Under the pieces are notes generated by a model that was not told where the DNA came from, ran no database searches, and saw nothing but the letters and a program-made list of their open reading frames with translations. Both the position numbers and the translations under genes were made by a program. A stretch of 64,000 bases of DNA from Botryllus schlosseri (taxonomy: Eukaryota): contig CM119371.1 in the NCBI GenBank assembly GCA_051294905.1, positions 11,906,001 to 11,970,000 on the forward strand, read 5' to 3'. Positions 23,701 to 54,270 of this stretch are shown here, piece after piece. The stretch's first letter is position 1; every line of letters starts with the position of its first letter.

Positions 23701-26700
23701 GTCCTAATCCAATCCAAATCCGAACCTTCAAATCCAAATCCTAATCCATACCTTTTTCATATTCAAGTCCATGTCCAATCCTAATCCGATTCTAACTGAT
23801 AATTCAGAAAAAATACTAATTTATGCAATGGAGGGATTCGAAAATTTTCTTTCACAACCAACGATTCACTTGATTCAATATAACTTAGTAACCATGAGTA
23901 CATTAATAACTGATCTGAATAAAGTTTGTCGCCATTCGCCACACGACATTTCAATCTCCCAGAAAATAGGTAAATCCAATCCAAATCCTAATCCGTTCTG
24001 AAAAAAATGTCTAATCCAAATCCGACAAAATTTCACAAATCCTGTTTTTTCAAAACCTAATCCTAATCCATGCTCATCTCTGTAACCTGGCTCCGCGGCA
24101 TCTAAACAAACATTTAAAAACACAACATCCTAGTCACCAAAACAAATCAAATGCATTTTTTGAGGAATCTCTGCGTCATCAACAGAAGCAAGTTTCTTGC
24201 TTTGAAAACGAAGTAAAAGGAGTGAAAAAATAATTAGCGATCGTTTCCCTAAAAATGACTCATGTTCTACTGAAGAAAAAGCGGCCATACACAGAGTTGG
24301 AATCCGTAGTTCTTCCTTGTCTTGAAATCGCAGCTGACCATTTGCATGGAGGTGAAAAAGCTCTCAGGAAAGTAAGAGCCGTTCCATTATCAGACACTAC
24401 AGTTAAACGGAGAAGCGATGATATTTCTCAGGATTTGCTGAAACAACTAGTTGTAAAGCTTAAGGATGCCACTGCCTATCAGAGATGAGCGGATTTGAAA
24501 TTTCTATGTCCTAATCCAATCCAAATCCGAACCTTCAAATCCAAAACCTAATCCATAACTTTTTCATATTCAAGTCCATGTCCAATCCTAATCCGATTCC
24601 AACTGGAAATTCAGAAAAAATACTAATTTATGCAATGGAGGGATTCGAAAAATATCTTTCACAACCAACGATTCACTTGATTCAAGATAACTTAGTAACC
24701 ATAAGTACATTAATAACTGATCGGAATATAGTTTGTCGCCATTCGCCACACGACATTTCAATCTCCCAGAAAATAGGTAAATCCAATCCTAATCCGTTCC
24801 GAAAAAAATGTCTAATCCAAATCCAGTCCAAATCCGACAAAATTTCACAAATCCTGTTTTTTCAAAACCTAATCCTAATCCATGCTCATCTCTGCTGCCT
24901 ATGGCATACAGCTTGATGAAACGACAGATATTTCAGATGAAGCGCAATTGATTGTATATTGTAGGTTCGCTGATGCAGAAGCAGAAACTATTGTCGAACA
25001 TTTTTTGTGCTGTGTAAAAGTTGGAGTTCGTACCACAGCTCAAGCCATCTTTGGTACGTTGAATAAATTCGTTGTGGAACATACTCTCGATTGGAAAAAG
25101 TGTAGATCAGTCACTACTGACGGAGCAGCAGCCATGCAAGGTCGTACAAATGGAGTTGTTCAGAAAATTAAACAAGTCGCACCGGATTGTGTGTCAAATC
25201 ACTGCATGATACATCGAGAGGCACTTGTAGTAAAGAAATTAAACCAAGAAAAAAAGGTGGAATGTCCTCTGGAGATTGTTTTTCATGATGTTGTCAAAAT
25301 TGTAAATTTTATTCGTTCACATTCCAAGACACATAGAATGTTTTCAGATCTTTGCAAAGACATGGGAAAAGAAGTAATAAGGTTGTTATACCATACCGAG
25401 GTACGCTGGTTGTCCAGAGGAAAGGTCTTAAAGCGAGTATTTCAACTGCGGAAAGAGGTGCATTTTTTCCTGGTTCAAAAAGGGCATGTATTGGCTGCTA
25501 AATTTGAAGATATCTTTTGGGTTGCAAATCTGTCCTATTTAACTGCAATTTTAGAGACCACCAATCAGTTGAATTTATCAATGCAAGGCAGAGGATTTGA
25601 TGTATTTGAGGTTGCCAGCAAAGTTAAAGCTTTTAAATGTAAGTTGAAGTTATGGCAGAACAATGTTTCAAAATGTGATTATTCAGATTTTGAATGTTTG
25701 AACAATTTCATCAAGAACAGGAATTGGGAAACCGATAACCCAAGCCTTGAATTAAAAGTAAAGTCCACCGTACATCAGCATCTCGATGTGCTGCAGCAGA
25801 ATTTTGAAGCTTATTTTCCAGAGGACGAATATTTGGATCTTGACTCTCTATTGTGGATCGTGCAACCTTTCACAAATGAAAGGTTGGATTTGGGCAACTT
25901 GACCGGGGAAGTTATTGAACTACGATCAGATTTGGTTCAAAAGGCAAAGTTCAAACAGCTCAAAAGCTACACTGATTTCTGGGTATCACTTCTTAAAATT
26001 CCTGAGTATCAAAATCTGAGTCAAAAAGCGATTACGATTCTTGTTCGCATGCCTACGACATATCTTTGCGAGCAAGGATTTTCGGCACTAGTTCAAATTA
26101 AATCGAAAAAAAGAAATTGCATCAAGGATGTCGATATGCTTATGAGAGGAGCACTCGAAAAAAGGCTACTGCCTAACTTCGCGCAGCTGGCGTACGAAAT
26201 ACAGCAGCAACGGTCGCATTGAATGTCTGGCATTATTTTGTAATTTTGTATTTGAATGCACATTGGTCCATAAATTCGTTCGTTATATAATCATTTTCGT
26301 CAATTACAAACGCCACAAGATTGCGAGTAGTCTTTTAATGAGATCCTTTCGACTAGCTAGGCAATTTCGATAAAAAAAACATGTACAACAAATGTATTTA
26401 AAAGTGACATAACAGACATGTGTCGTTACGCTTTATCGATATATTAGATAATACGGTAATCTCGAGTCCTAATTAGTATTTAGCAGCTCCTATAGCTTGC
26501 TAATCCTTATGATAATTAGGCCCTTTACCGACTTGGGTGTTTTATATGAACAGGGGTGTACGAGTTTGGAGAAAACGTTAAAAGGGTGTACCACGTCAAA
26601 AAAGGTTGAAGAGCACTGCCATAGATCGAGGCGAGGTCCATGGTAGGAATGTTCCGTATACCATTCTGGAGGGTAATACATCAGTGTCCCGGAGTAATGA

Positions 26701-28982
26701 TGTTCCCGGGGTGTCTGAAATAGGGAATAACAATTGATTAATATACGATTCAATGTCAGAAGTGTCTATGGAAGTTAACAATTGAAGCCCGCGATAAAAT
26801 ACCAACGCTGGCGCGAGGTGTCTTCACGAAATATGGACATGATAACAAATTTATTCCTGGATTTTGAAATATCAAATTAGCTTTTGTTTGGCTTGATGAT
26901 AAATCGTCGGCCACGTACCTGCAACCTCATACCGCACCCAAAATCAATCAGCTTTGACGCAAAAGTGCGCGGATCCAGAAGTACATTTTCCGGCTTGATA
27001 TCACGATGGACTACCCCGGATTCGTGACAGTGTGAAACTGCTAGAGCGACCTGATGGAAGACGCTTCGTGCGGTATCCTCTGAGAATTCGCCGCAGTCGC
27101 ACTGCGACTGCCGAATATCGACAGCGCGGTTCGGTCTTTCCATCACGAGCACGAATTCGTCTTTTTCATCAAACCATTCAATCATACCGATGATTCCTGC
27201 AAAATTAGATGATAAGAATGGATCTGTAAGCAGTTACTTCAAGTTATTACTAGGACCTCTAGGCATAATCGAGAACCTTTAGTCATTCGATTTGAGTCGC
27301 GAGTATTAAGAAGAATAGTGTGACATTACCATGGAGTTGGTCAGTAAGCCGAACGAAGAACCGTTATTCTATCAAGTACTGAAGTAGGTTATTATTACTA
27401 CAACTAAACTCGAGCGGTACTTATTCACTTGTTCTTCTACTTCACAGTTTTGAGTTTTTTTCGGTTAAACTAGGCCGAGAAAACCTAGCTTTTCTCACTA
27501 CGTGTAAATCGGTTCTTTTATTTCTATTTTAGTCATAAATTACTTCAACTTGAGTACCAACTACGCATGCACATGCATGATCATTGATCACCTTCCTACA
27601 AGACGGTGATAAAGTTATTAGTAGCGCAATCTCGTTTATGTTGGTATCAAAAGATTCGGCACGAATCCAAGCGATAAAAATGTAGTAACGTACTTTCAAT
27701 ACGCAGTCTAGAGATCATCATAATTTACATATTGTTCCATATCGATCTCAGCTCAAGCGGCAAGTCATGAGAATCCTGGCTAATCATCAGATGGAACGTG
27801 ATCAAATCCAAATCCGTAAGATTTTCGTTATCTGCTTCCACTTGAAGTAGGTTTGACGTGTCTCGGAAATCGATTGGTCTATGATCGTAATCGAGTAAAA
27901 TGTACAACCGTACTTCTAGTAGAAGGGCTTCGCATAGACACATTGAAATACACCCGAGAATTTTCGGCTGACACTCGTCATAAGTTATCATCAGCATCTA
28001 GTAGAGAATTGGAAAGAACATGGTATATCAACAATCAACTTTTATTACTACACGAGTATGGCTACTCCTGTATACTCTGCTGAATAGGTAGGCTTACAAT
28101 CAAGGATATCCTCGCTATCACACGTATAACTGCAGCATATCGACCGTAATAAACATCAATAACTAACCTGGATGTTTCGACACAGACGCTTTGTGAAGAA
28201 GCTCGAATTCTATCGGTACCGTGCAGCCTGAAAATTGAACCCATTGAGGTACGTTGAACTTGGGTATAAATTTTAAGGCAACGGCCTTGCCGTCTGATTT
28301 CCGAGTCGCTGCAGAAATAAATGAGACGTTAGATTGATCAAATCATGTGTGAGATATTTCATTGTAAGATGTAAATTGTGAGATGCCGCAGTATTTATTG
28401 TGGGGATTCCTAGACGTACGGAACTTTGAACAATTGAATAAAAATTCATATTGTGATATATATCAATAGATTCGGCTGGATATCGTCAGGGTAATCGTCA
28501 GTAAGTAGCTGACTCTGGCAAGAGTATTGAAAGGAAAATCTTATGCATAAAAATTTGAGTCATTTAGGCGAATATTTTAAATTATTTACAAAGTCAAATA
28601 TTTCAAAATAACCGTACGCCAACACAAATGAATAATGCTCTGAAAGATAACCTAATTTCGTTAAATCGAATGTTGGAAAAGATAACTCACCAGCGTGGAC
28701 CGTGCCGCCCCCACCCGACCCAATTTCTTCTCTCTCGTCGTACAATGCCGTCCAAGGTACGCGTTCCAACATGACATCAGGTGGTATGACGGCAGGATTC
28801 AGCTCTACATGCGGCGTACGTAGTAGGCGCCTGGTGCGACGTACCACCTTTTTCTCCCTCTTCCGAACTGCCGGCGAATTTTCGCTATTCGAATCCTCAG
28901 AACTGCTGCTCATGATCAGCATTTTTCGGGGTCTGTTCACGTCGCGCGAATTACTGAGATCTGACGACAATTTCCTTTTCAT
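20759..28982 (-). CDS. PIM: PIM-family serine/threonine kinase, 4 exons; last exon interrupted by a hAT insertion (probably a null allele)
   Basis: Exons 28982-28691, 28308-28168, 27196-26919, then 26714-26619 + 20968-20759; GT-AG introns, phases 1,1,0; 338 aa when restored. Motifs IGSGGGGTV, VALK, VPIEFELL, PIM-type hinge LVMERP, HRDIKPEN, DFG, GTLMYYPPEW, DLW|GLGVLLY, HPW. Confidence 0.9.
21411..22025. mobile_element. Foldback-like palindromic MITE (arms ~300 bp) nested in the hAT element
   Basis: tagggctgttcaaaaataactttttt ... aaaaaagttatttttgaacagcccta; arms pair almost to the centre (~21715); TSD ATGCACAT/ATGCACGT (7/8). Confidence 0.88.
22620..23035 (+). mobile_element. hAT MITE, CAGAGATGAGC family, nested copy 1
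   Basis: 11-bp TIR; perfect TSD GTACCTAT. Confidence 0.95.
23673..24082 (+). mobile_element. hAT MITE, CAGAGATGAGC family, nested copy 2 (within the BED-finger codons)
   Basis: 11-bp TIR; perfect TSD TAACCTGG. Confidence 0.95.
24480..24894 (+). mobile_element. hAT MITE, CAGAGATGAGC family, nested copy 3 (just before the first catalytic Asp)
   Basis: 11-bp TIR; perfect TSD CTGCCTAT. Confidence 0.95.
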
Positions 28983-34721: not shown

Positions 34722-36946
34722 CAGTGGTTCTCAACCTTTTTGATCCCGCGGCACCCTTTGAAAATGAAAAATAGTTCGCGGCACACGAGCACAGTGGTTC
34801 GCAACATTTTTGACTTACGGCAGCTTTAAACTACCAGAATGCTCAGTGGAACCCACAGTAGCAATGATAAAGTGATCTCTGACGAAACAATTCAGCCTTT
34901 TCGGAGCACTGAAATAGATTTTGCTTTTCTTCAAAGAAGAAATTACGGTATATTCTGTACCAGACATATCACAAATCAGTCTATGAATGTTATCATTAGA
35001 CATGAGAATCGTTTTCAATTCTAATTAGCCGCGGTCACAAAAACTGTTTTACAGTTTTAGTGCAAGCCGGAAGAATAACTTCGCTTCGCTGTGAAATATT
35101 GAATTTTTAGCTATTACCTCTGCTACAACATAACTTACCCGCTGCAATCTCGGTGAAACCTCGGGCTGCGCTGAGAGAGGGTTTTCATCCGACTCGGATG
35201 AGACACAGTGGCACGTACGGAGTCACAATGTACAATTGTACAAGTCGAAAAGGGGACGGGAAACGGCAGCTTTTGTCCCACGACTATGTCAACCTACGTC
35301 TAAAAGCAACGAAAATAATTTCGATTATGTAGTAACTGCAAGTTTATGCTGAAGTAACCAAATATTCCGGCGGCGTCATGTCGTTTGTCGTCTGCCGTGA
35401 AAAATGGTATTCATATAAACTCGGGCTGAAGTGTATCTGATGTAGATTTACGGTACTTGCGGCAGGTCCTGTTATTGTAACCCCAAACACACAGTGGGTG
35501 CGGGAGAATTGATATAATGATATTATTTGATCTAATTTACATCTCAATTCTTAAATTCGTCGCATGTGACATAACGTTACGCTCCGAGCCTACGGCAGTG
35601 CCGGCTGAGAACCCCTAATCTACGCGCACCATAAAGTTTCAACGAGATAGCAGTTCTGTTGAAGCGGAGGTAATAGCTAAAAATTCAAAAACTTACACGG
35701 AAACAGAGAATGTTGTTCTTCCGGCTTGCACTAGAACTGTAAAAAAATGTTTGTGACCACAGCTGTGGAAGAGTTGAAAACGATTCCCATGTCGAATGAT
35801 ACGATTTGCAGACTTATTTGTGATATGTCCGCCGATATAGAAGATACAGTAATTTCTACTCTGGAGCAGAGCAAATTCTACTTCAGTGCTCCGACAAGGC
35901 AGAAGTACTACATCAGAGACCACCCGGTATTGTTTGTAATTCGAATTTGTAAACGTGACCATCACTTCGAAAGGAGTTCATTTCTCGCTGGTGATTAGGA
36001 AGACGAGCTAGGGCCCAAAAGGGGCCTGGCTGCCCATCCAACAAGTCGCTGCTGAAGAGATACGGCGTGCTAAACCTAGAAGATATGCGGAAACTAGAAA
36101 TCGCCAAGTTTATGTATCAGTTCCACTGCGGTCGTTGCCCCGAGTATTTCAATGACTTCCTTACCTCGGAATCAAAAGCGCACAAGTCCAACACACGCGC
36201 GATCACGTCGTCCAAATATCATATGATCGACCGAAAAGATCATCGCTCTATCAAATATGCCGGACCTGATGTGTGGAACAGTATCCCGCCGGCCATCCGA
36301 CAGTCAACGAGGATGTCCACATTCAAGTCGAAATACAAGCAATTACTACTAAATAAATACAGTCCATCCTCAAGATTACCGGACCACGACTGACCTATCG
36401 ATCTCGCTTCCCATGACATGCCGCCCTATTTCTTGTCGCTTTCATCTTCTATACTATCTTCTTTACTTTCATTCAGTGTGCATGCCTCCTCTATACATCG
36501 CCCAGGCCTAGGCCAAGGTGGGTGTCAGATTCCATAGACTACTCCTGTCGCTTCGACATCTTCCTGTCTTTTCATTGTATCGCATTTTTTGTGGTGTATT
36601 GAACTGATAAAAATTGCTAATAAACCAATGATGATGATGAAAAGACCATGAAGATTAGAAAACTGCATTGCCACACAGGTGCCGCCATGTCGGCTCTTCT
36701 CTGCGATCAATAACGATGTTGCGTAAAACTGACTTCAGCCTTTAAAGATCGCGATGTCATGACAGTAATTTTGATTTGTCATATGTAAACTCTTCACGTC
36801 GAGTCTGATTTAGAATATTGGTCGTTTGCTACGTACTAGAATTATTTTGCACATAATTTCAAAATTTAGAAGAAATCTCTCGCGGCACACTTGGGAGAAG
36901 TAAATGGCACACTAGTGCGCCGCGGCACACCGGTTGAGAACCACTG
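34722..36946. mobile_element. Non-autonomous Buster-type hAT element carrying transposase scraps and a LINE fragment
   Basis: TIR CAGTGGTTCTCAACC; perfect TSD GATTAGGT; transposase-like ENVVLPAC..LKTIPMSNDTICRLICDMSADIE on + (~35700-35890) and an inverted homologue at ~34880-35125. Confidence 0.88.
36007..36639 (+). mobile_element. CR1/L2-group LINE 3' fragment
   Basis: ORF 36067-36393 (LEIAKFMY..HKSNTR..SIKYAGPDVWNSIP..FKSKYK) is typical of the post-RT C-terminus; AATAAA plus (ATG)n tail. Confidence 0.85.
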
Positions 36947-41709: not shown

Positions 41710-43621
41710 GTCTAGAGAGCACATGAGAAGAGCAAGTAAATTCACGATACTGTGTGTTCTGCTCTTTACCTCAATCTAACTTGAGAATTCATAACAGTTT
41801 AATAGGCCTGACGGTAAAGCAGCTTTTAGACTACCACCAAAATCTGAATTTTCGTGGCATCTCGCGACCCCAGCCTCAAACATGAAAATGAATTCATTTT
41901 TAATATTGCAGTTGTATATTTGCTACGATTTTACGGACATGTATGACGTTGCGCACACCACAACTCTACCGAACAAAGCTCTACAAAACATGTATGACGC
42001 ACGCGATTTCAAATGAGAGCGAATTAAATTCCTCTGCGTGTCGCAGTTGTACTATACTGTCTACCCGGATTGCAAGAACGGGACTATTCCGTGCCTACAA
42101 CGGAGCATATCCATATTAAAAGGCTTGGCCATCCAGCATCGGTCATTCTTAGACCAAGGTTTTGTCTCCGCTTATGTTTTTGGCACCGCATGTTATCAGC
42201 GGTTTGTTGGCCAAAACTTTACGTCTTCATGTGCCCCGACGCAGAATGGGGTTGGCCTCGAAAACTCGCGCATTGCACACCCCTACACTAGTTCACCCCA
42301 ACGGTCATAAACCATGTTTTACAGAAAACAACAGTTGGACAAATCTTATCATGAATTCTCATGATAAATCCATATTTTCTGCGTGTCTCGCTTATTGGCT
42401 ACAGTACCCGGCACAGTATCCTTGGATATTTAAAAACTATCGCAGAATTTTTTCCAAATTTTGACAATTTCGTCGCATCTACAAAAGCTACACAGAACTT
42501 AAATTTCCTATGAGGTTAATTTGAATTATTCCACGTCAGAAAAATTAACAATTATTCACGATTTTGATTCGCACTTGATCCAGATTTTCATTCGTACCAC
42601 CTTAGTCATTCGCACCACCTTAGTCATTCGCAGTGCAATTTTTTCATTCGCACAAGTGCGAACCGTCACACAGGTTGAACGGCACTGCTATAGAGCACGC
42701 TTTCACTGCACTGCCATTGCCGGATTATGAGCCAACAATCACCGAGGCAAATTAATCTGTGCTTTACTGGGATGTTGTTTTTCTGCGCCGAATTTCACAG
42801 TCCTTGCCGATTTCGAGGGATTTTGATGTTGCAGAACTATTAATACTCCGATTTCTGGAATCAGTGAGACGGTAGCATTCCATTAATACCATTTAATATA
42901 AATTCCGAATTTTATGATGAATTACACTGTCATAGGTGAGGCTTGCTTCCTATTTGTTTACTCCATGCCCACCTCTCCTTTACGCAATATGTAAGAAAAA
43001 TATCCAAATTCACTTTATATTGGGTGTACAAATGTTATTGATTCACGAACAATAGAAAATGCCAATCATTATCGGAGATCTCCGCAATTGTCAGTTACTC
43101 ATCCTGACGACGGATGAGGCCCTGCTTCACTTACATCCCCCAAACGCACATCACTGGAGCATTCAACGATCTAAGTGTCTGCCAAAGAATATACCACGCA
43201 GCTTTCGAAACGCACTGTCAGATTATGACCTTAGCAGTACAGAGACGGTTCTTCGATTTAGTTTTATAGTGCCAATATTCCGGTAGAATTAATATACTGG
43301 AAAATTGTCGTGCCTCGTATTGTCGAGACGAGTAAATCCGCGGGAATATCGAATGATACTGTTCACTAATCTTGATCTATTTCCTATATGGCCGCATAAT
43401 ATATCACGAAACGTGACAACTGTTTCGAAGCCATGCAACAGGTTCCAATAGGCGCAGAGTATCAAACAATTTCGTAAGATCGACCAGATCGCAGATCGCC
43501 AAAATATGACGTTCCTACGTGTGTGTAAAAGGAACATGGTATTAATTCGCACAGAGACACGATTTCTAACTTACATCTTCAATGATCTTTTCCGAATTGC
43601 CGCCACAATTCCCAATTTGGC

Positions 43622-43960
43622 TTTTTGAATATGTTTGAATAACTTTATTGTGCTGATAACTCTTGATAAGAAGCACCCAGAAAAAGTCTTTGAGTTATCA
43701 TAAAGGTGTTATTGCAATGGATGTTGTGATGAAAGCACCTTAATTGAATATGCTCCTCTGGATCAGACGATTGATACCTTGGACTAAGGGCCAATAATTT
43801 CGTTTTATTTTTGAATATGTTTGAATCCCTTTATTGTGCCGATTACTATTGAGAAGAAGCACCAAAGAGTCTTTGAGTTATCATAAATGTGTTATTGCAA
43901 TGGATGTTGTGATGATATCACCTTAATTGAATTTGTGTCGCTGGATGAGACCATTGATAT
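43622..43960 (+). repeat. Diverged tandem duplication, ~187-bp unit, upstream of the forkhead gene
   Basis: ttttgaatatgtttgaat..agaagcacc..gttattgcaatggatgttgtgatga at ~43622 and ~43808. Confidence 0.8.
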
Positions 43961-44204
43961 ACCTTCGCTTAATTGGCCACTAATCCAGAGAAAATATATA
44001 TCAGATATCACAGTAGACAGACCCTTATCTCCTAATTACAAGTTGTTGCAACAGCCAACAAAATGCATCGAACATTGTATGCAAGTGAGAGAAATTTCAA
44101 TAATCCAATCAAATTGACCCGCGATAAGGTGAATTTAAAACCCATTACATTTGTATTTGTGTCATTTGATTTTACATACTACTTGACGAAGGCAGCAGTG
44201 CAGT

Positions 44205-47055
44205 ATGAAACGCCAAAGATGTCCAGATATTCTTGAGCAAGTAGTGCGGGATTCCGAGGTAGGTCGTTATAAGATTTATCGGATTTGTCTTGACGAATAC
44301 CTCAGATATAAGCTCCACTATATCGCCGTAGTATAATTTGAAGAAATGAATTTCAGGACATTGCCGCATTGTGAACCTATCCCCCAAAGTAATGGAATAA
44401 TATCTATATTATCTGAGCCTATCGCCACATTGCGAAAGTTTATTTCGGGCCCAAAATTACGGAGCAAAGATCGTTGCCGATGCGCATGTGAGCAAACTAT
44501 CCCTAAGGGCATGTCACCCGAATTTGCACAGCAGAAAGTTATACGAATTCGAATTTAGAAATAGCACTGACATTGGAAATTTTAGTAAGGTCATTAACAA
44601 TATAGTAGCATTTGAATAGGAAACTTGAAGTAGATGTAATGTTCGCGTGAGTTTTCTTTATTTAAGCGTGGGAAAGACCACAGATTCTCCGAACAATATA
44701 AATATGTACTGAATTAACCCGAATTTAAATATAAAATGTCCTTACCATGGGGCATCAGTTATATAGGCTGTCTGGTGCATATTCATAACATAGTCCATAA
44801 TTTTACAGCAACGCAGCGGCTTTCATCAAAGAAACCGATTCTCCGACTCACAACACCCGACCACAGGTCGCTGGAGCGATGAAGATGCCGCGAAGTTTGT
44901 CAATGAACTTTACTCAGAAATTTTCACAAGCCCTTTGCCGACACCACCTCGCAAGAAGAGACATGTGGAAAACACCGAGCCACTGTCTAGTCGGCAAAAT
45001 ACAGCAACAAATTTCCGGTAAACAGTACAGAACTTTGTGTTTTCGATTTCTCTGGAACTCTCCGTAAAAACTAGTTTGTTTTCGTGTCACGCTGATTGAC
45101 TTTGTGCAATGAAATTTTTGTACTATGTTTTGAATGATGCTGTTCAGAGCATGAATCTTTATTTTTATATTCCAGATACTTCCATTCGGCAGGAGATCAC
45201 ATTCCCAGAAACTGCGATCCCGAGCGTGAAGTTGGAATGTCTGTCCCCGTACAAGCGCAATATTTGCAGAATGAACGTCATTTCATCGCCCCCAACCGAT
45301 TCCTACTCCAGGATCAAAACCATGATGTATCCTGTGCCGCGGCAGACGTCGAAATTGCGTACAATGTTTTTGAATCGCACCACGACGGCATCAGACGTAT
45401 TTTACATCCGGAAATCGGCCCCCAATCCCCCGAAAATTTGCGAATCCTCCTCGACAGGATTGGTTGGAACTCCTATTGTTTCTCGGATCTTCGACGAAAG
45501 GCGCTGGAGAGTATGAATTCCGGGACTAAGTAAGTTTGAATTGTTTGAACGTTTTGAAGGACAACGCAAGAAAAATCTTGTAAGATATATTTGATTAACA
45601 TTGACTTGCACAACGCTATAGACAAATGCATATGATTGGTGCGATCTAACAGTTTTCATTTCAACAAATTGTGTACATATGGAGCTTTGATACTGTCGGG
45701 GTGTCTGTCACAATTTTTAGTGAACTAATCTTGTAGCCACGATTCGTTACATTATACTCAATATCTGACTGTAATCACTCATATTTTTGTGTCTATACTT
45801 CTACTATCCTGTGCATATGTCTCTTCCATTATCGATAACTCACGTTTTTTGTTGTAGACGAGGAACGAAAAGAAGATACAAACGTCGTATTTCTGTGGAG
45901 TTGGACGAGAACAACATTCTCAACATCATTTTGGGGTCTGCAGCTGCGATGGCGGCAGTGAATCCTCTGTCTCGTCATCCTGGAAGTTACGATGTTGCCA
46001 TCTTTCTCGCGTTCAAAATGGCGAATTGCGCGGCACTACATAATAGCGAAATATATCACAATATTTCCATGATATTCCCCTATTATACCAGAGCGCACAA
46101 AAAGACCTTCCAGGTGAGTGCAACGCTGAACTTACAGTCGATTCAAACTACGATAGGTTCTATTTGAACGATTGGTCCTCCTCATATCCAGTAGTTTTAT
46201 TATAGTATAGCAAACAGCAGTTTTTGTATGCCGTTCTGTTTCGAAGAATAGATAAACTGTCGAAACGATAAGACCATACCTAGAGTCACAAATTGTGACG
46301 ATGTGGATTTATTTGATGCAAGATCATTTAACTTAGCGACTTACATGATACGTGCTATGTCAATACGAATCCGTATTAATTTAGAACGTATTCGCCCTCG
46401 TCGAACACTGGTTATCGTCATGTTTCAATATGTTCGAACTCTTTCCTTTTACAGAATAGCATACGACATCGCCTGGCAACCGCGGCCGATCCCGGAAAGG
46501 TAAATGTCGTACTGTACCGAAAGCTGGCGACGTTAGATGGGTGTGACGCGCAGTGGTCAATAATTGACAGAAATGCGTACGATGAATTAATGCGAGAATT
46601 TATCGTTGCAATCAGTTCTAACGAAGCATTTGAGCAGCTGAAGAGAGCAATCCACGATAACAGTAAGTGTTCTAAGGAAATGGAATTGGAAGCGTCTTGC
46701 ACCCTAGCCTAGACTATGCTTTGTGGCCGTATGGCACAACCCCCGGTTTAAACGCCACGCTAAGGTGTATATTAACTTTAGGTAGGGAAATGTTAGGTAT
46801 GAGTATTTCAAATGTTTCGTCTCGTGATATTTATTTTAAGTTTAATTTTCAGATAGAGTTCGGAGAATATTTGAATACGATCCGCAACTGCGACTGATGG
46901 GACGGAGACTGTTCACGGACTTGGGCCAACACAGCCGATGTCAGCGAGATTCCTCACGCCACATGACTCATTTATATGGGAGTGGGAGTGAACTTCACGC
47001 TACGCCATCACATCCGGTGGCAATTCAGAACCCATCTATATCACATAGTTATTAA
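44205..47055 (+). CDS. Divergent forkhead-box (winged-helix) transcription factor, FoxN/FoxR-like; 6 exons, 427 aa
   Basis: Exons 44205-44258, 44809-45017, 45176-45529, 45858-46113, 46455-46662, 46853-47055; all GT-AG, phases 0,2,2,0,1; no stops. Domain HPGSYDVAIFLAFKMANCAALHNSEIYHNISMIFPYYTRAHKKTFQ|NSIRHRLA...QWSII. Exon 1 is the least certain. Confidence 0.85.
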
Positions 47056-47256
47056 GGCGCTATGTCAATTGAAGAGGTGGCGGCGCGAGTAAAAGCGATG
47101 ATGCCACATTTACCAGTAATAGACTACGGCGCATTGAATGGGAAGACACATGTTATGGGGGTAGCATTAAATGTGGATTAGATTTATTCGACCACGTTTT
47201 CAATTTACAAAGAAATTGCTATCCATCTATATTGATGTTTATTATTTATGAACAAC

Positions 47257-47262
47257 AATAAA
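47257..47262 (+). promoter_or_regulatory. Candidate polyadenylation signal of the forkhead gene
   Basis: AATAAA about 200 nt downstream of the TAA stop. Confidence 0.5.
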
Positions 47263-50849: not shown

Positions 50850-51668
50850 GCTCATAAAAAAATGACTGACAGAAAATCGAACTATTTCATGAAAACCAAA
50901 CAACCCAGTAAGCAAACTGGGATTAGCTCACCCTTGAGAAATCACGGATGAACCTTATACTAAAAAATGAAGAGAAAATTATCAATTTCAGATTAGCAAA
51001 TGAAGGATAGCTATTCGGCGAAGCAAAGAAAAAACGAAATTTACTGAAAATTAAAAATGGAAAAACAGAAACCCACAAATGCAGATTGTGTCAGATGGAA
51101 AATGACACAATCCAACATGTATTTGGGCGATGTAGATTTACACAAGACATCCTGAAAAAACAAGCAATAAAACTCGACATCAGACTCAGAGATCCGGAGC
51201 TCATATTGCAACATCAAGGCACAACGAGTGAAGCAGCCATAGCCCTGATTTCGATCTTCAAAAAAGTCATCCTGAAATACAAAAGGAACCTGGACATTGA
51301 AAACGAAAAACCCGAAAACGACAAAGAGGAAAAAAGAAACTTGACCCGAAATATCCTGCGGAAGTTGGCGACACGAATATGAAAATCGCCAACCTGGAGA
51401 CATATCGACACCCTGAAAAACATCGAAGAAAAAGCGGAAGAACACCTAATCTAAAAGGGAAAACAGACACCGAAAACACAAACCTGAAGAATCGAATGGA
51501 GGATGAGAATGAACGATGCTGGACGATGACGACGAAGGATCCAAAGGAAAGAAATTGAATTTACACCCTTTTTTTGTTTATGCAAATTTTACTCGACTTT
51601 ATTGTACTGAAATTTTGATATAAGAAATAAATATATAGGTGACCAAGGTCACCACGATAAAAAAAAAA
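50850..51668 (+). mobile_element. L1/Tx1-like non-LTR retrotransposon 3' fragment
   Basis: CCHC knuckle CRLCQMENDTIQHVFGRC; A-rich plus strand; AATAAA at ~51626 and an A-tail ending at 51668. Confidence 0.6.
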
Positions 51669-52567
51669 CTGTATGGTGTATGTAATGCGATGGTGGCTTG
51701 ACATCGGATTTCCCAGAGCGAGAGGGATATTCATGTTAACTCGCTGGTAAATGCCCCGGTCAAAGAGGCATTTTCAGGAAAACAAATTAGATTAGAATTA
51801 GAATTTGAGCATAGGAACATGTCACATATTAGATTAGGATTAGAATTAGAGCATAAAAACATTTCATAAATTATATTAAACTTACATTACTGGCATTTTG
51901 TTCTAATTTAGTGAAATTAGACAATTAGAATTTTCTAGTTGTCCAAGTCTGCCGTCAAACATGGTTGTAAACCGCGCGGTTCGTCAGATATCGAAAAATG
52001 GAAAATGCATATAAAATTTACAAATGGGCGTGGTCAGTGAGTGGTCATCAAGGTCAAGTGCATGATCAAGACTCAATCGGACCCCTACCGTCCGGTTTAT
52101 GGCATAAAACAACGCAATATGGTTCCTTTTGTCATATCCAAGCATTTGCAGGCAGAGCAAACCAGTTTATGACTCATATGCCGCCTGAATTTGCTCTTGA
52201 ACTTGACCTAGATCTTGAAAATCACTGAAGCGTGACCAAAATCAACAAATCTCCCTCAGAAAACTATCCAGAACACGTTTTGATGTTTGAAACGGTGACA
52301 ATTTATGCAGAATACCGTACATGTCGACTTCTGATGTTCTGGCAGATTTTCCGACAATATTTCCCACTCGGAAAATATCTGGAAATTTTAGGTGATAACC
52401 ATTTTTTCATTGTGTTTTATTTTTATTTTTATTTTTGCAAACCAAAATTTTTGAGTAAGGTACCAAATGCATCGGAAAAGTCTCAGCTTTTCCAAAAACG
52501 TAGTCCCCGATGTCTATGGCGTGTCAACATGGAAAAATCGGTGTCGGAGACATGCCATATCATATAT

Positions 52568-53950
52568 CAGTGGTCGGGAACCTATGGCTCGCGAGCCATG
52601 TATGGTTCTTTTGGGCATAAGATATGGCTCTTTGCGTAATTCCTATTTTTGTGCTTTATGTATCGATATTGCAGCAACTTGTTTTCAAATCTTCAGCACG
52701 ACCAGTATCATTATTCTTGTGGCAGTATGAACAATAAACATGTCTTTGAGAGTTTAATACAGTGGCGTATTCGGGGTTAGGGGTTCGGACCCCCTTTTCA
52801 AAAGTCCTCAAATTTAAGTTGCTGTCGCGCCGGCGTCCAATATCCGCCACGAAATCTTGGATTGCACGTTATGTTGATTGATCAAAGAGAGTAGGAGACG
52901 TTGTGGAACCTGTATCAGAAAGCAGTTTTCAAATTAACATTGTCTTCCTGATCTACTGCGAGAAATAAACTACCGTGGAAGTGACATTCACAATTACAAA
53001 TTCAAATTATAAACAGCGCCATAAGTATCAATGATCTTGATTGATAACCTAGCTTTGTAGTCGCTGTTCAAATGTAAGCGTGTGGCGCAACGTTATGTTA
53101 CCGCCGAAAACTTTTACAATTGAGAAGTCTAATCGGAATCAGTGCAACAATTACATTCGATTAATATCAGTAATTATAAATTCTATGGTATGTACGATGA
53201 ATTGCGCTGTCACAGGTAAGACACCGCCCTGTCGTGCCTCACCTATGCCATACCTCACCTTTCACGCTTTATTTTCAAACAATATATGGACAAGTTACAT
53301 GATTTTGGTGGTAAAAATGTTCCAATTCTAGTAGACAGGTGATGCACAGCATCCCCTGCCTCCCCTCACCCCATCACTGACACATCAGACACATCAGTGG
53401 GTACTGATGCAGAGTGATCATGTTCGGCTTCGACTACGAATGGGTCCTTGCATTTAAGATTAGCATCCAGACGAACATACGATCCCGTATGACCGAAGAA
53501 AGACTCAAATTTTGTATGAAGCTTAACCACGACAATTGTCAGCCAGACTATACAAAGTCATCAGGAGTGCCATGCAACACCAAAAGTCGCATTGACTGTA
53601 AAACCGTATGGTCTACGTCTGTATGAAATTTGAATGATTATTGTCTTAAGCTTCGAAAAATATCATTTGCTCCTCAGTGCAATACAATTAGAAATAGCCT
53701 AGATAACTTGCAAAAGATCTATATAACTCAAGTGTTGCATACTCATTATTTAAATAAAATAAACAGTATGATTAGGACGAGAAAATAAGGTGCACGAATC
53801 CCATGTAGTGATTTCTAATTTGCGCTACCATGACGTCACGATTTTTAAATGCGACGTAATAGTTCATTGACATGTATAGCTCTTTGGGAGTTCAAATGAA
53901 AAATATAGGGTTAATATGGCTCTTCGGACAAAAAAGGTTCCCGACCACTG
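52568..53950. mobile_element. Non-autonomous Buster-type hAT element
   Basis: TIR CAGTGGTCGGGAACC; TSD TCATATAT/CCATATAT (7/8). Confidence 0.85.
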
Positions 53951-53977
53951 CCATATATGATACACCCACCTCATGTT

Positions 53978-54268
53978 CTGTGGTCGGGAACCTTTTTCGT
54001 CCGCAGAGTCATATTGACCCTACATTTCCCATTTCAACTCATAAAGAGCCATACATGTCAACCAGCTATTACGTCACAATTGAAAAATCGTGACGTCATG
54101 GTCGCGCAAATTCGAAATCACTACATGAAATACGTCGTTTGCACCTATATTTCCTCTGTAAAAACTGGTACTAACCATGCTGATTGTCTTATTTGAGTAA
54201 TGAGTATGCGAGAATTGAGTAACATAGATATTTTGCAAGTTCTATATTTTCAAGTGTATTGCACTTAG
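53978..54268 (-). mobile_element. Inverted partial copy of the right end of the 52568-53950 element
   Basis: Diverged reverse complement of ~53675-53950, starting ctgtggtcgggaacctttt. Confidence 0.8.
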
Positions 54269-54270
54269 GG

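Follow-up and report, generated by a model that had tools for sequence, protein, structure and literature searches.

Fox genes, tunicate orphan Fox genes and lineage-specific expansions of Fox genes are already known. Among the closest described systems are the Foxtun genes of Ciona (Foxtun1, Foxtun2 and Foxtun4 in current naming), which are tunicate-restricted Fox genes and, like the family reported here, have no class placement. Orphan Fox-1 is probably the earlier name of Foxtun1. The window analysed here, a stretch of 64,000 nucleotides of Botryllus schlosseri DNA (C1:11906001-11970000, from a genome of 495.5 Mb in 219 contigs), contains a six-exon gene for a highly divergent forkhead protein. 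We consider it probable that this is a real protein-coding gene within a lineage-specific expansion of the tunicate-only Orphan Fox-1, and that its product is a nuclear DNA-binding regulator.

Two 2026 preprints describe Foxtun1 as maternal and among the first zygotic genes in Ciona, and PMC8122590 gives 23 Fox genes for Styela clava, the fewest of six tunicates. Reports on annelid foxQ2 and 'orphan' Fox genes (PMC9539403) and on flatworm Fox expansions (10.1101/2025.01.09.632129) show a comparable pattern, in which a single lineage has numerous divergent Fox copies that fit no class. The annelid and flatworm expansions concern another parent class and another phylum, whereas here the parent gene is itself tunicate-specific. 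Our searches of the literature on forkhead expansions, orphan Fox genes and Foxtun genes turned up no report of Orphan Fox-1 or Foxtun genes having multiplied in a stolidobranch ascidian.

Gene model and forkhead homology

The gene lies on the forward strand at positions 44205-47055 of the window. Its six exons join into 1,284 nt, which encode 427 residues before a final TAA and are free of earlier stops; joining them reproduced the six-exon, stop-free model given in the preliminary description. All five introns are of the GT..AG type (phases 0, 2, 2, 0 and 1), with pyrimidine-rich tracts at the acceptors and the donors GTAGGT, GTAAAC, GTAAGT, GTGAGT and GTAAGT for introns 1-5, respectively. 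The start ATG at 44205 is the earliest in frame downstream of a stop. The spliced sequence also bore out the phase-0 intron that had been placed within the domain, with the exon 4/5 joint reading ...AHKKTFQ/NSIRHRL.... The gene model is more than chance, because three full-length paralogs preserve every one of its splice-site pairs together with the reading frame: L002 (C1:11833268-11836135, hereafter the sister copy), L003 (on C3) and L005 (C13:23240738-23242966, reverse strand). Introns 2-5 are also kept in a fourth paralog, L004 (C13:23551745-23554051), which lacks exon 1. The parts of the gene and its flanks are as follows.

41713-44204, + strand: 5' flank co-duplicated with the gene, a candidate promoter region; identity of 84-95% to the sequence ahead of the C3, C13 and C1:11.83 Mb copies
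44205-44258, + strand: exon 1; 18 codons, ATG at 44205, phase-0 donor
44809-45017, + strand: exon 2; 209 nt, fast-evolving N-terminal region, no Pfam match; ratio of nonsynonymous to synonymous substitution rates (dN/dS) 0.37-0.90 in exons 2-3
45176-45529, + strand: exon 3; 354 nt, no Pfam match
45858-46113, + strand: exon 4; basic KRRYKRR patch, pre-domain extension and first half of the forkhead domain
45859-45969, + strand: family-specific pre-domain extension in exon 4 (residues 207-243)
45970-46113, + strand: opening half of the forkhead domain (H1 and H2), as far as ...TFQ
46114-46454, + strand: intron 4; 341 nt, phase 0, cuts the domain just ahead of helix H3
46455-46662, + strand: exon 5; recognition helix NSIRHRL, divergent wing and conserved post-domain helix
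46455-46457, + strand: Asn292 codon AAT, a private change from AGT (Ser)
46455-46568, + strand: NSIRHRL helix and wing of exon 5, to WSIID
46569-46662, + strand: post-domain helix AYDELMREF...EQLKRAI, conserved in the family alignment and in the BLASTP alignment with Styela protein P0002
46853-47055, + strand: exon 6 as used by the window copy, ending in a derived TAA (47053-47055)
47056-47181, + strand: former C-terminal tail; 41 codons, still open, to the ancestral stop at 47179-47181
47257-47262, + strand: AATAAA, candidate polyadenylation signal, kept in five of five aligned copies

Scans of curated libraries took the unspliced exon translations one by one. Pfam Forkhead (PF00250, gathering score 27 bits) aligned with exon 4 alone at 19.1 bits (E 0.0014, positions 2-48 of 88), while the same scan gave no forkhead match for exon 5 and no match at all for exons 2, 3 and 6. 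Searched against PDB sequences, exon 4 had 10 weak matches, five of them named forkhead, the best being FoxN1 (E 0.02). A hidden Markov model (HMM) of 10 full-length forkhead domains from the same genome, hereafter the canonical HMM, matched the spliced protein at 30.6 bits (E 1.7e-11 at Z = 1) over residues 244-299, which span H1, H2 and H3 as far as ...SIRHRLA, and left the wing unaligned.

Exon 4 belongs to a family with at least 23 loci in this genome (see below). Of 23 exon-4 translations of the family, 22 matched PF00250 at E ≤ 0.1 (best 1.2e-7), and three loci other than the window copy exceeded 27 bits (30.6-31.4) on the first half of the domain alone. A profile of all 23 found 31 PDB matches at E ≤ 1, 29 named forkhead, with a FoxA1 chain first (E 5.9e-8) and FoxA3, FoxN1, FoxN3 and FoxM1 following. 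The canonical HMM and the family profile uphold the description of the product as a highly divergent forkhead protein, and with the family context the forkhead homology is settled.

Kinship with Orphan Fox-1 and size of the family

A HMMER pass with the exon-4 profile over 1.84 billion representative proteins returned 97 matches. The best true match, P0002, is the Styela clava 'uncharacterized protein' LOC120342057 (E 1.2e-13, profile positions 3-81, including the pre-domain extension), which itself scores 70.5 bits against PF00250. Its relatives are Phallusia mammillata 'Orphan Fox-1' (P0018), Ciona savignyi H2Z827 (P0040) and a Ciona intestinalis 'transcription factor protein' (P0115). Compared by BLASTP with these four Orphan Fox-1 proteins, the spliced window protein aligned at E values of 2e-20, 3e-13, 8e-11 and 2e-9. 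In the Styela alignment (184 residues, 32% identity), window residues 194-367 pair with Styela residues 691-871. It begins with the final ~12 codons of exon 3 (RRKALESMNSGT), which open the alignable stretch, and continues through the basic patch, ILG..AA..A.NP, the domain and the post-domain helix into exon 6. It crosses the exon 3/4, 4/5 and 5/6 joints and therefore supports them. A search with exon 4 for longer homologous proteins, in collections without this species' proteome, gave 40 candidates, none at E ≤ 0.01.

Some other matches of the HMMER pass stood apart. The top row, P0001 (111 bits, no single matching stretch), is a 3,240-residue repetitive protein and was discarded as a summed-repeat artefact. 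Several of P0003, P0004, P0005, P0006 and P0009-P0011 carry two to six forkhead-like stretches per protein (e.g., locust 'uncharacterized' proteins of 994-1685 residues); they are genuine multi-forkhead proteins or else tandem genes that gene prediction has joined. P0008, an exon-sized frame of 111 residues from a different organism, shares the pre-domain extension; its end, ...AWQ and then V-S (GT...), suggests that the intron may occupy the same position in a relative outside this genome.

An HMM built from the four Orphan Fox-1 modules scored all 19 spliced family modules at 41-69 bits (62-69 for the window subfamily), against 22-36 bits with the canonical HMM. Maximum likelihood domain trees sampled the Fox genes of this genome and the four tunicate Orphan Fox-1 proteins. 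The family formed a single group (support 98-100). A branch with 100/99 support separated it, together with Orphan Fox-1, from the remaining Fox domains of this genome (24 in one tree, 25 in the next), and in a first tree the support was 100/100 against 10 canonical ones. Orphan Fox-1 itself fits no clear Fox class; its profile scores FoxG1, FoxK1, FoxA1 and FoxN1 at 72, 65, 62 and 60 bits, respectively.

The family and Orphan Fox-1 have in common a C-terminal module with a KR[KR]Y patch, [K/H]PP..Y(D/N)..I(Y/F)LAFK in H1, FPYY, an IRH-type H3, a long wing that closes with W.I, and the helix after the domain; Styela also shares the pre-domain stretch ILG..AA..A.NP. They differ in length (580-995 residues in Orphan Fox-1 proteins, 427 in the window protein) and in the residue before H3 (W in Orphan Fox-1, F in the family). 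In H3 itself, Orphan Fox-1 reads QNA(I/V)RHQLCC, invariant except at the I/V position, whereas the family consensus is F-(K/M/Q)-S-S-I-R-N-R-L and the window copy has F-Q-N-S-I-R-H-R-L-A-T. The conserved N-terminal region of Orphan Fox-1, with an EKWKTDWFHE block invariant in all four proteins, is absent from the family. Moreover, the library searches made here recovered a single Orphan Fox-1 representative per species, compared with at least 23 loci in this genome.

The preliminary description had treated the gene as a single hidden paralog, and this did not survive the genome searches. The gene DNA has 17 matches in the genome, including four close paralogs at 85-95% identity: one on C1, 117 kb upstream (95%, full length), one on C3 (87%, full length) and two on C13 (85-87%), where more distant pieces also lie. 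The exon-4 protein has 29 genome matches at E ≤ 1 on C1 (4), C3, C4, C13 (4), C14 and C15 (18); 23 are at E ≤ 1e-12, and the other six are weak fragments, three of them with stops. The 23 translations align over 85 columns with 12 invariant positions. At 20 of the 23 loci, a GT donor directly follows ...TF(K/Q/M), and an AG with an (S/N)S(I/V)R frame comes 179-349 nt on; the intron position is therefore a family trait. Exon-5 frames stay open for ~68 codons at 19 of these 20 loci. The family is a large expansion specific to the lineage of this species.

The 18 matches on C15 form a tandem array over 1.9 Mb (C15:2350026-4284646), 12 of them at E ≤ 1e-12 and several being fragments with stops. 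Members there have SSIRNRL as helix H3 and a wing insert longer by five residues, and those at 2.83, 2.97 and 3.35 Mb have identical domains. Among the close paralogs, exon 2 of L005 contains a 93-nt in-frame internal duplication repeating ...RWSDEDAVKFVD.LYSEIV.SPL..., which brings the projected frame to 457 codons. Exons 2-6 of L004 lie at 23.55 Mb on C13, and a copy of the 5' flank and exon 1 (L010, C13:23429340-23431993, 89-93% identical) lies 120 kb away; this is either a first intron of 120 kb or a copy that rearrangement has split.

When the gene model was projected onto the close paralogs, all splice sites were kept, with open frames in L002, L003 and L005, and the exon 2-6 indels among these copies (3, 6 and 93 nt) are all multiples of three. 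Exon 1 is identical at 54 of 54 positions in L002 and L003 (intron 1, 85-94%) and at 52 of 54 in L005, intron 1 spanning 80-94% over all of these; exon 4 is 93-97% identical between copies and introns 81-97%. Between the window and C3 copies, identity was 100% in exon 1, 95.7% in exon 4, 92.3% in exon 5, 87-92% in exons 2, 3 and 6, and 85.6-90.5% in introns. The dN/dS ratio was computed by the Nei-Gojobori method for pairs among the window copy and its four close paralogs. It was 0.34-0.58 for the whole coding sequence, 0.15-0.31 for the 84-codon forkhead part (six pairs without L004) and 0.37-0.90 for exons 2-3. Purifying selection therefore acts on the domain throughout the subfamily and leaves the N-terminal half almost unconstrained. 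The proposal that the gene is fast-evolving and possibly lineage-specific is supported.

Across the C13, C3 and C1 copies, identity is 84-95% in the 2.5 kb ahead of the ATG, and blocks lying further upstream match as well. The sister copy, in the same orientation, matches at 95-96% identity for 20 kb or more; the match takes in the gene with 7 kb or more to either side, and downstream the identity is 96% for at least 7 kb. Dispersed repeats interrupt the duplicated blocks differently in each copy. Since flanks of ~10 kb or more are shared and repeat insertions differ, spread to C1, C3 and C13 by segmental duplication of blocks of ~10 kb or larger fits better than a mobile element. A gene borne by a transposable element was rejected on these same grounds, its terminal repeats not having been searched for.

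The gene lies among repeats, as had been proposed: a hAT remnant, a zf-RVT remnant and three dispersed repeats. For the dispersed repeats the copy numbers are lower bounds, only 40 candidates having been scored. The neighbouring features of the window are as follows.

24879-26219, + strand: hAT-type transposase remnant; 447-codon frame, weak DUF4371 match (28.5 bits) and hAT dimerisation match (18.5 bits)
26880-27233, - strand: exon of a kinase gene; Pkinase 79.5 bits, profile positions 56-149 of 263
36006-36641: dispersed repeat of ~630 nt; at least 30 copies, 95-96% identity
40196-41718: dispersed repeat of ~1.5 kb; at least 7 copies, 88-94% identity
50619-50833 and 53672-54269: palindromic elements matching their own reverse complement (87% and 77%), the same in the C1 sister block
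51011-51379, + strand: likely retroelement remnant; weak zf-RVT match (23 bits, E 1.3e-4)
51951-52567: dispersed repeat of ~615 nt; at least 35 copies, 90-94% identity

State of the window copy and alternative explanations

The NSIRH motif in which a forkhead signature had been recognised is present in the window copy but is not the family state, as 19 of the 20 loci with an exon 5 begin it with SS[IV]R. The Asn292 codon is AGT in all four close paralogs, and position 46456 is G in all contigs of runs X5, X6 and X7. The preliminary description had also called the gene intact. Its open frame and splice sites are, but a derived early stop cuts the ancestral tail by 41 codons: the TAA at 47053-47055 stems from a 3-nt insertion near 47050 and the paralogs lack those 3 nt. 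Beyond this point the paralog frames run on for 41 codons in L003 and L005 and for 36 codons in L004, after an in-frame 15-nt deletion, and the sister L002 has its own TGA 10 codons into the tail. Through these separate stops, both C1 copies lost their last 31-41 codons independently and recently. In our reading, the tail is dispensable and the genes remain under selection; the main rival is early decay of the C1 pair.

Among 24 sequencing runs, 12 contain part of the stretch, none of them recorded as RNA. Contigs of X5, X6 and X7 cover exons and introns evenly, as DNA would, and differ from the window by 1-8%, mostly 3-4%; run X6 has ~3-6 contigs at most listed places. At the 40 best-supported differences, the contig base equals that of L002 in 33, L003 in 31, L004 in 32 and L005 in 33. 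The contigs are paralogs, or alleles without the private changes of the window copy, and are unusable as population evidence on that copy.

Several observations weigh against a functional gene of Orphan Fox-1 descent. By itself, exon 4 falls below the Pfam cut-off (19.1 versus 27 bits). A profile of 17 exon-5 translations had five PDB matches at E ≤ 10, none of them forkhead, so that this half is unrecognisable alone; the second half of the domain is therefore forkhead only by position and by alignment to Orphan Fox-1. An AlphaFold2 model of exon 4 (23 aligned sequences) is of low confidence (mean predicted local distance difference test score 54.9), although it has helices at residues 44-54 and 62-72, where H1 and H2 are expected; exon-4 and exon-5 translations predicted as a two-chain complex scored 0.01, which speaks neither for nor against. 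The family lacks both the conserved N-terminal region of Orphan Fox-1 and its QNA[IV]RHQLCC helix. BLASTP between the window protein and Orphan Fox-1 gave no N-terminal alignment. When the genome was searched with Styela P0002 for an orthodox Orphan Fox-1, the 39 matches all fell in its forkhead region (residues 710-821), with none to the N-terminal part. In pairs with L004, dN/dS of the domain rises to 0.46-0.80. Since its split from the sister, the window copy has gained seven nonsynonymous (the AGT-to-AAT change among them) and three synonymous codon changes and a premature stop, a pattern indistinguishable from neutral drift. No reads of X19, the single raw RNA run, fell on the locus, a result that does not amount to a test of expression. 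The near identity of the window copy and its sister over 20 kb or more could also reflect uncollapsed haplotypes in a highly polymorphic species.

These last points bear on two rival accounts of the window copy. It could be a young decaying duplicate, silent or becoming a pseudogene and open only because it is recent, with function residing in other members. The derived stop 41 codons before the ancestral one, the independent nonsense codon in the sister, the seven-to-three ratio on the window lineage, the contigs of three runs without its private substitutions (33 of 40 variants equal the L002 base) and the silent RNA run, itself no test, would all suit decay. However, both the window copy and the sister are free of frameshifts, stops and other disabling changes up to codon 427, every splice site is preserved, exon 1 is identical to that of paralogs, and both disabling changes of the C1 pair fall within the last 42 of ~468 codons, i.e., the last 9% of the ancestral frame (chance ~0.008 if hits fell evenly); we regard decay as unlikely. 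Alternatively, the window copy and C1:11833268-11836135 would be two haplotypes of one locus placed in tandem by the assembler, leaving the subfamily one locus fewer. In its favour, the two run in the same direction and match at 95-96% identity throughout the gene and for 7 kb or more to either side, and allelic divergence may be as large as the 1-8% (mostly 3-4%) seen in contigs of other runs. Both copies nevertheless lie on one contig, repeat insertions differ between the blocks, the premature stops are separate and L002 has a 6-nt deletion, which makes the haplotype account improbable; even if it were true, the gene and the family would stand.

A third account concerns ancestry. The family could instead have diverged from FoxN1/4, or from some other canonical class with an intron, and resemble Orphan Fox-1 through long-branch attraction. 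FoxN1 is indeed the best single-sequence PDB match of exon 4, at a weak E of 0.02. The branch to the family measures 0.8-1.9 changes per column, and the tree program warns that long branches meet. Forcing the family together with L026, a gene with FoxN1/4-like motifs, costs 12.4 log-likelihood units with an approximately unbiased (AU) test p of 0.06, so that the grouping is formally not rejected. Yet the Orphan Fox-1 likeness extends beyond the domain to the pre-domain KR[KR]Y...ILG..AA..A.NP and the post-domain helix, Orphan Fox-1 support is 100/99 in two trees, in which L026 falls among other Fox genes, and the family profile scores FoxA1, FoxA3, FoxN1, FoxN3, FoxM1 and FoxG1 alike (30-36 bits), with no class standing out. 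The FoxN1/4 affinity seen in the preliminary description is accordingly not retained, and we hold any such canonical origin to be highly improbable.

The intron before NS(I/V)RH had been called typical of several Fox types. Its position is matched in five of the nine split Fox genes of this genome (spliced by HMM score), which have, as the family does, a phase-0 intron before N(S/A)(I/V)R; judged by their motifs, these are two FoxO-like genes, one FoxP-like gene and two others. The FoxN1/4-like gene, in contrast, shows no intron before NSVRH: a single frame of 86 residues, free of stops, covers positions 7-67 of the Pfam profile. Relative to canonical Fox proteins (FoxA, FoxN1, FoxN3, FoxM1, FoxG1 and FoxK), the H1-H2 half of the family domain is recognisably homologous, whereas the wing half is unrecognisable by sequence and the Asn of H3 is replaced. 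Two FoxO-like genes (C12, 10.22 and 10.26 Mb; L035/L036/L082) lie 40 kb apart and have nearly identical forkhead domains, one with L in place of W before NSIRH. The FoxA open reading frame of the genome (518 codons) has Styela clava 'forkhead box protein A2-like' as its best named match (63% identity, full coverage) and matches other assemblies at 76-79%.

Predicted function and significance

For a gene of this Orphan Fox-1 expansion, function would rest on the module shared across the family: a basic patch, a pre-domain extension, a divergent winged-helix domain split before H3 by a phase-0 intron, and a post-domain helix. KRRYKRR, the basic patch that precedes the domain, is a likely nuclear localisation signal and would direct nuclear entry, and helix H3 of the winged helix is predicted by homology to contact DNA. 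The post-domain helix, conserved with Orphan Fox-1, may be a partner-binding or dimerisation element, and the N-terminal part of ~200 residues would be evolving almost freely. We infer that the product binds DNA in the nucleus with altered specificity and that the gene is expressed.

In forkhead-DNA complexes, the Asn and His of NSIRH contact bases. Because the family has replaced this Asn by Ser, and mostly also the His by Asn, its DNA specificity is probably changed or weakened relative to canonical Fox proteins; the window copy would have regained the Asn secondarily, by reversal. Multi-copy early embryonic transcription factor genes are known in Ciona and in mammals. It is conceivable, although rather unlikely, that the 23 or more loci, including the C15 array, are fast-evolving maternal or early-zygotic regulators derived from Orphan Fox-1, whose rebuilt H3 reads a new motif or competes with canonical Fox proteins, and of which the window copy, with its Asn regained and its tail lost, would be a recent functional variant.

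The stakes of the window copy itself are modest, as it is one recent duplicate with an early stop. For the family they are larger. Counts of Fox genes made with profiles will miss it, most members lying under the Pfam cut-off exon by exon and the wing half being unrecognisable alone. Orphan (Foxtun-type) Fox genes are among the few transcription factor genes found only in tunicates, and the multiplication of such a gene to two dozen loci in one lineage is a natural experiment in which the DNA-reading helix has changed, the domain is under purifying selection and the rest drifts freely. The case thus bears on how a DNA-binding domain can shift its specificity after duplication.

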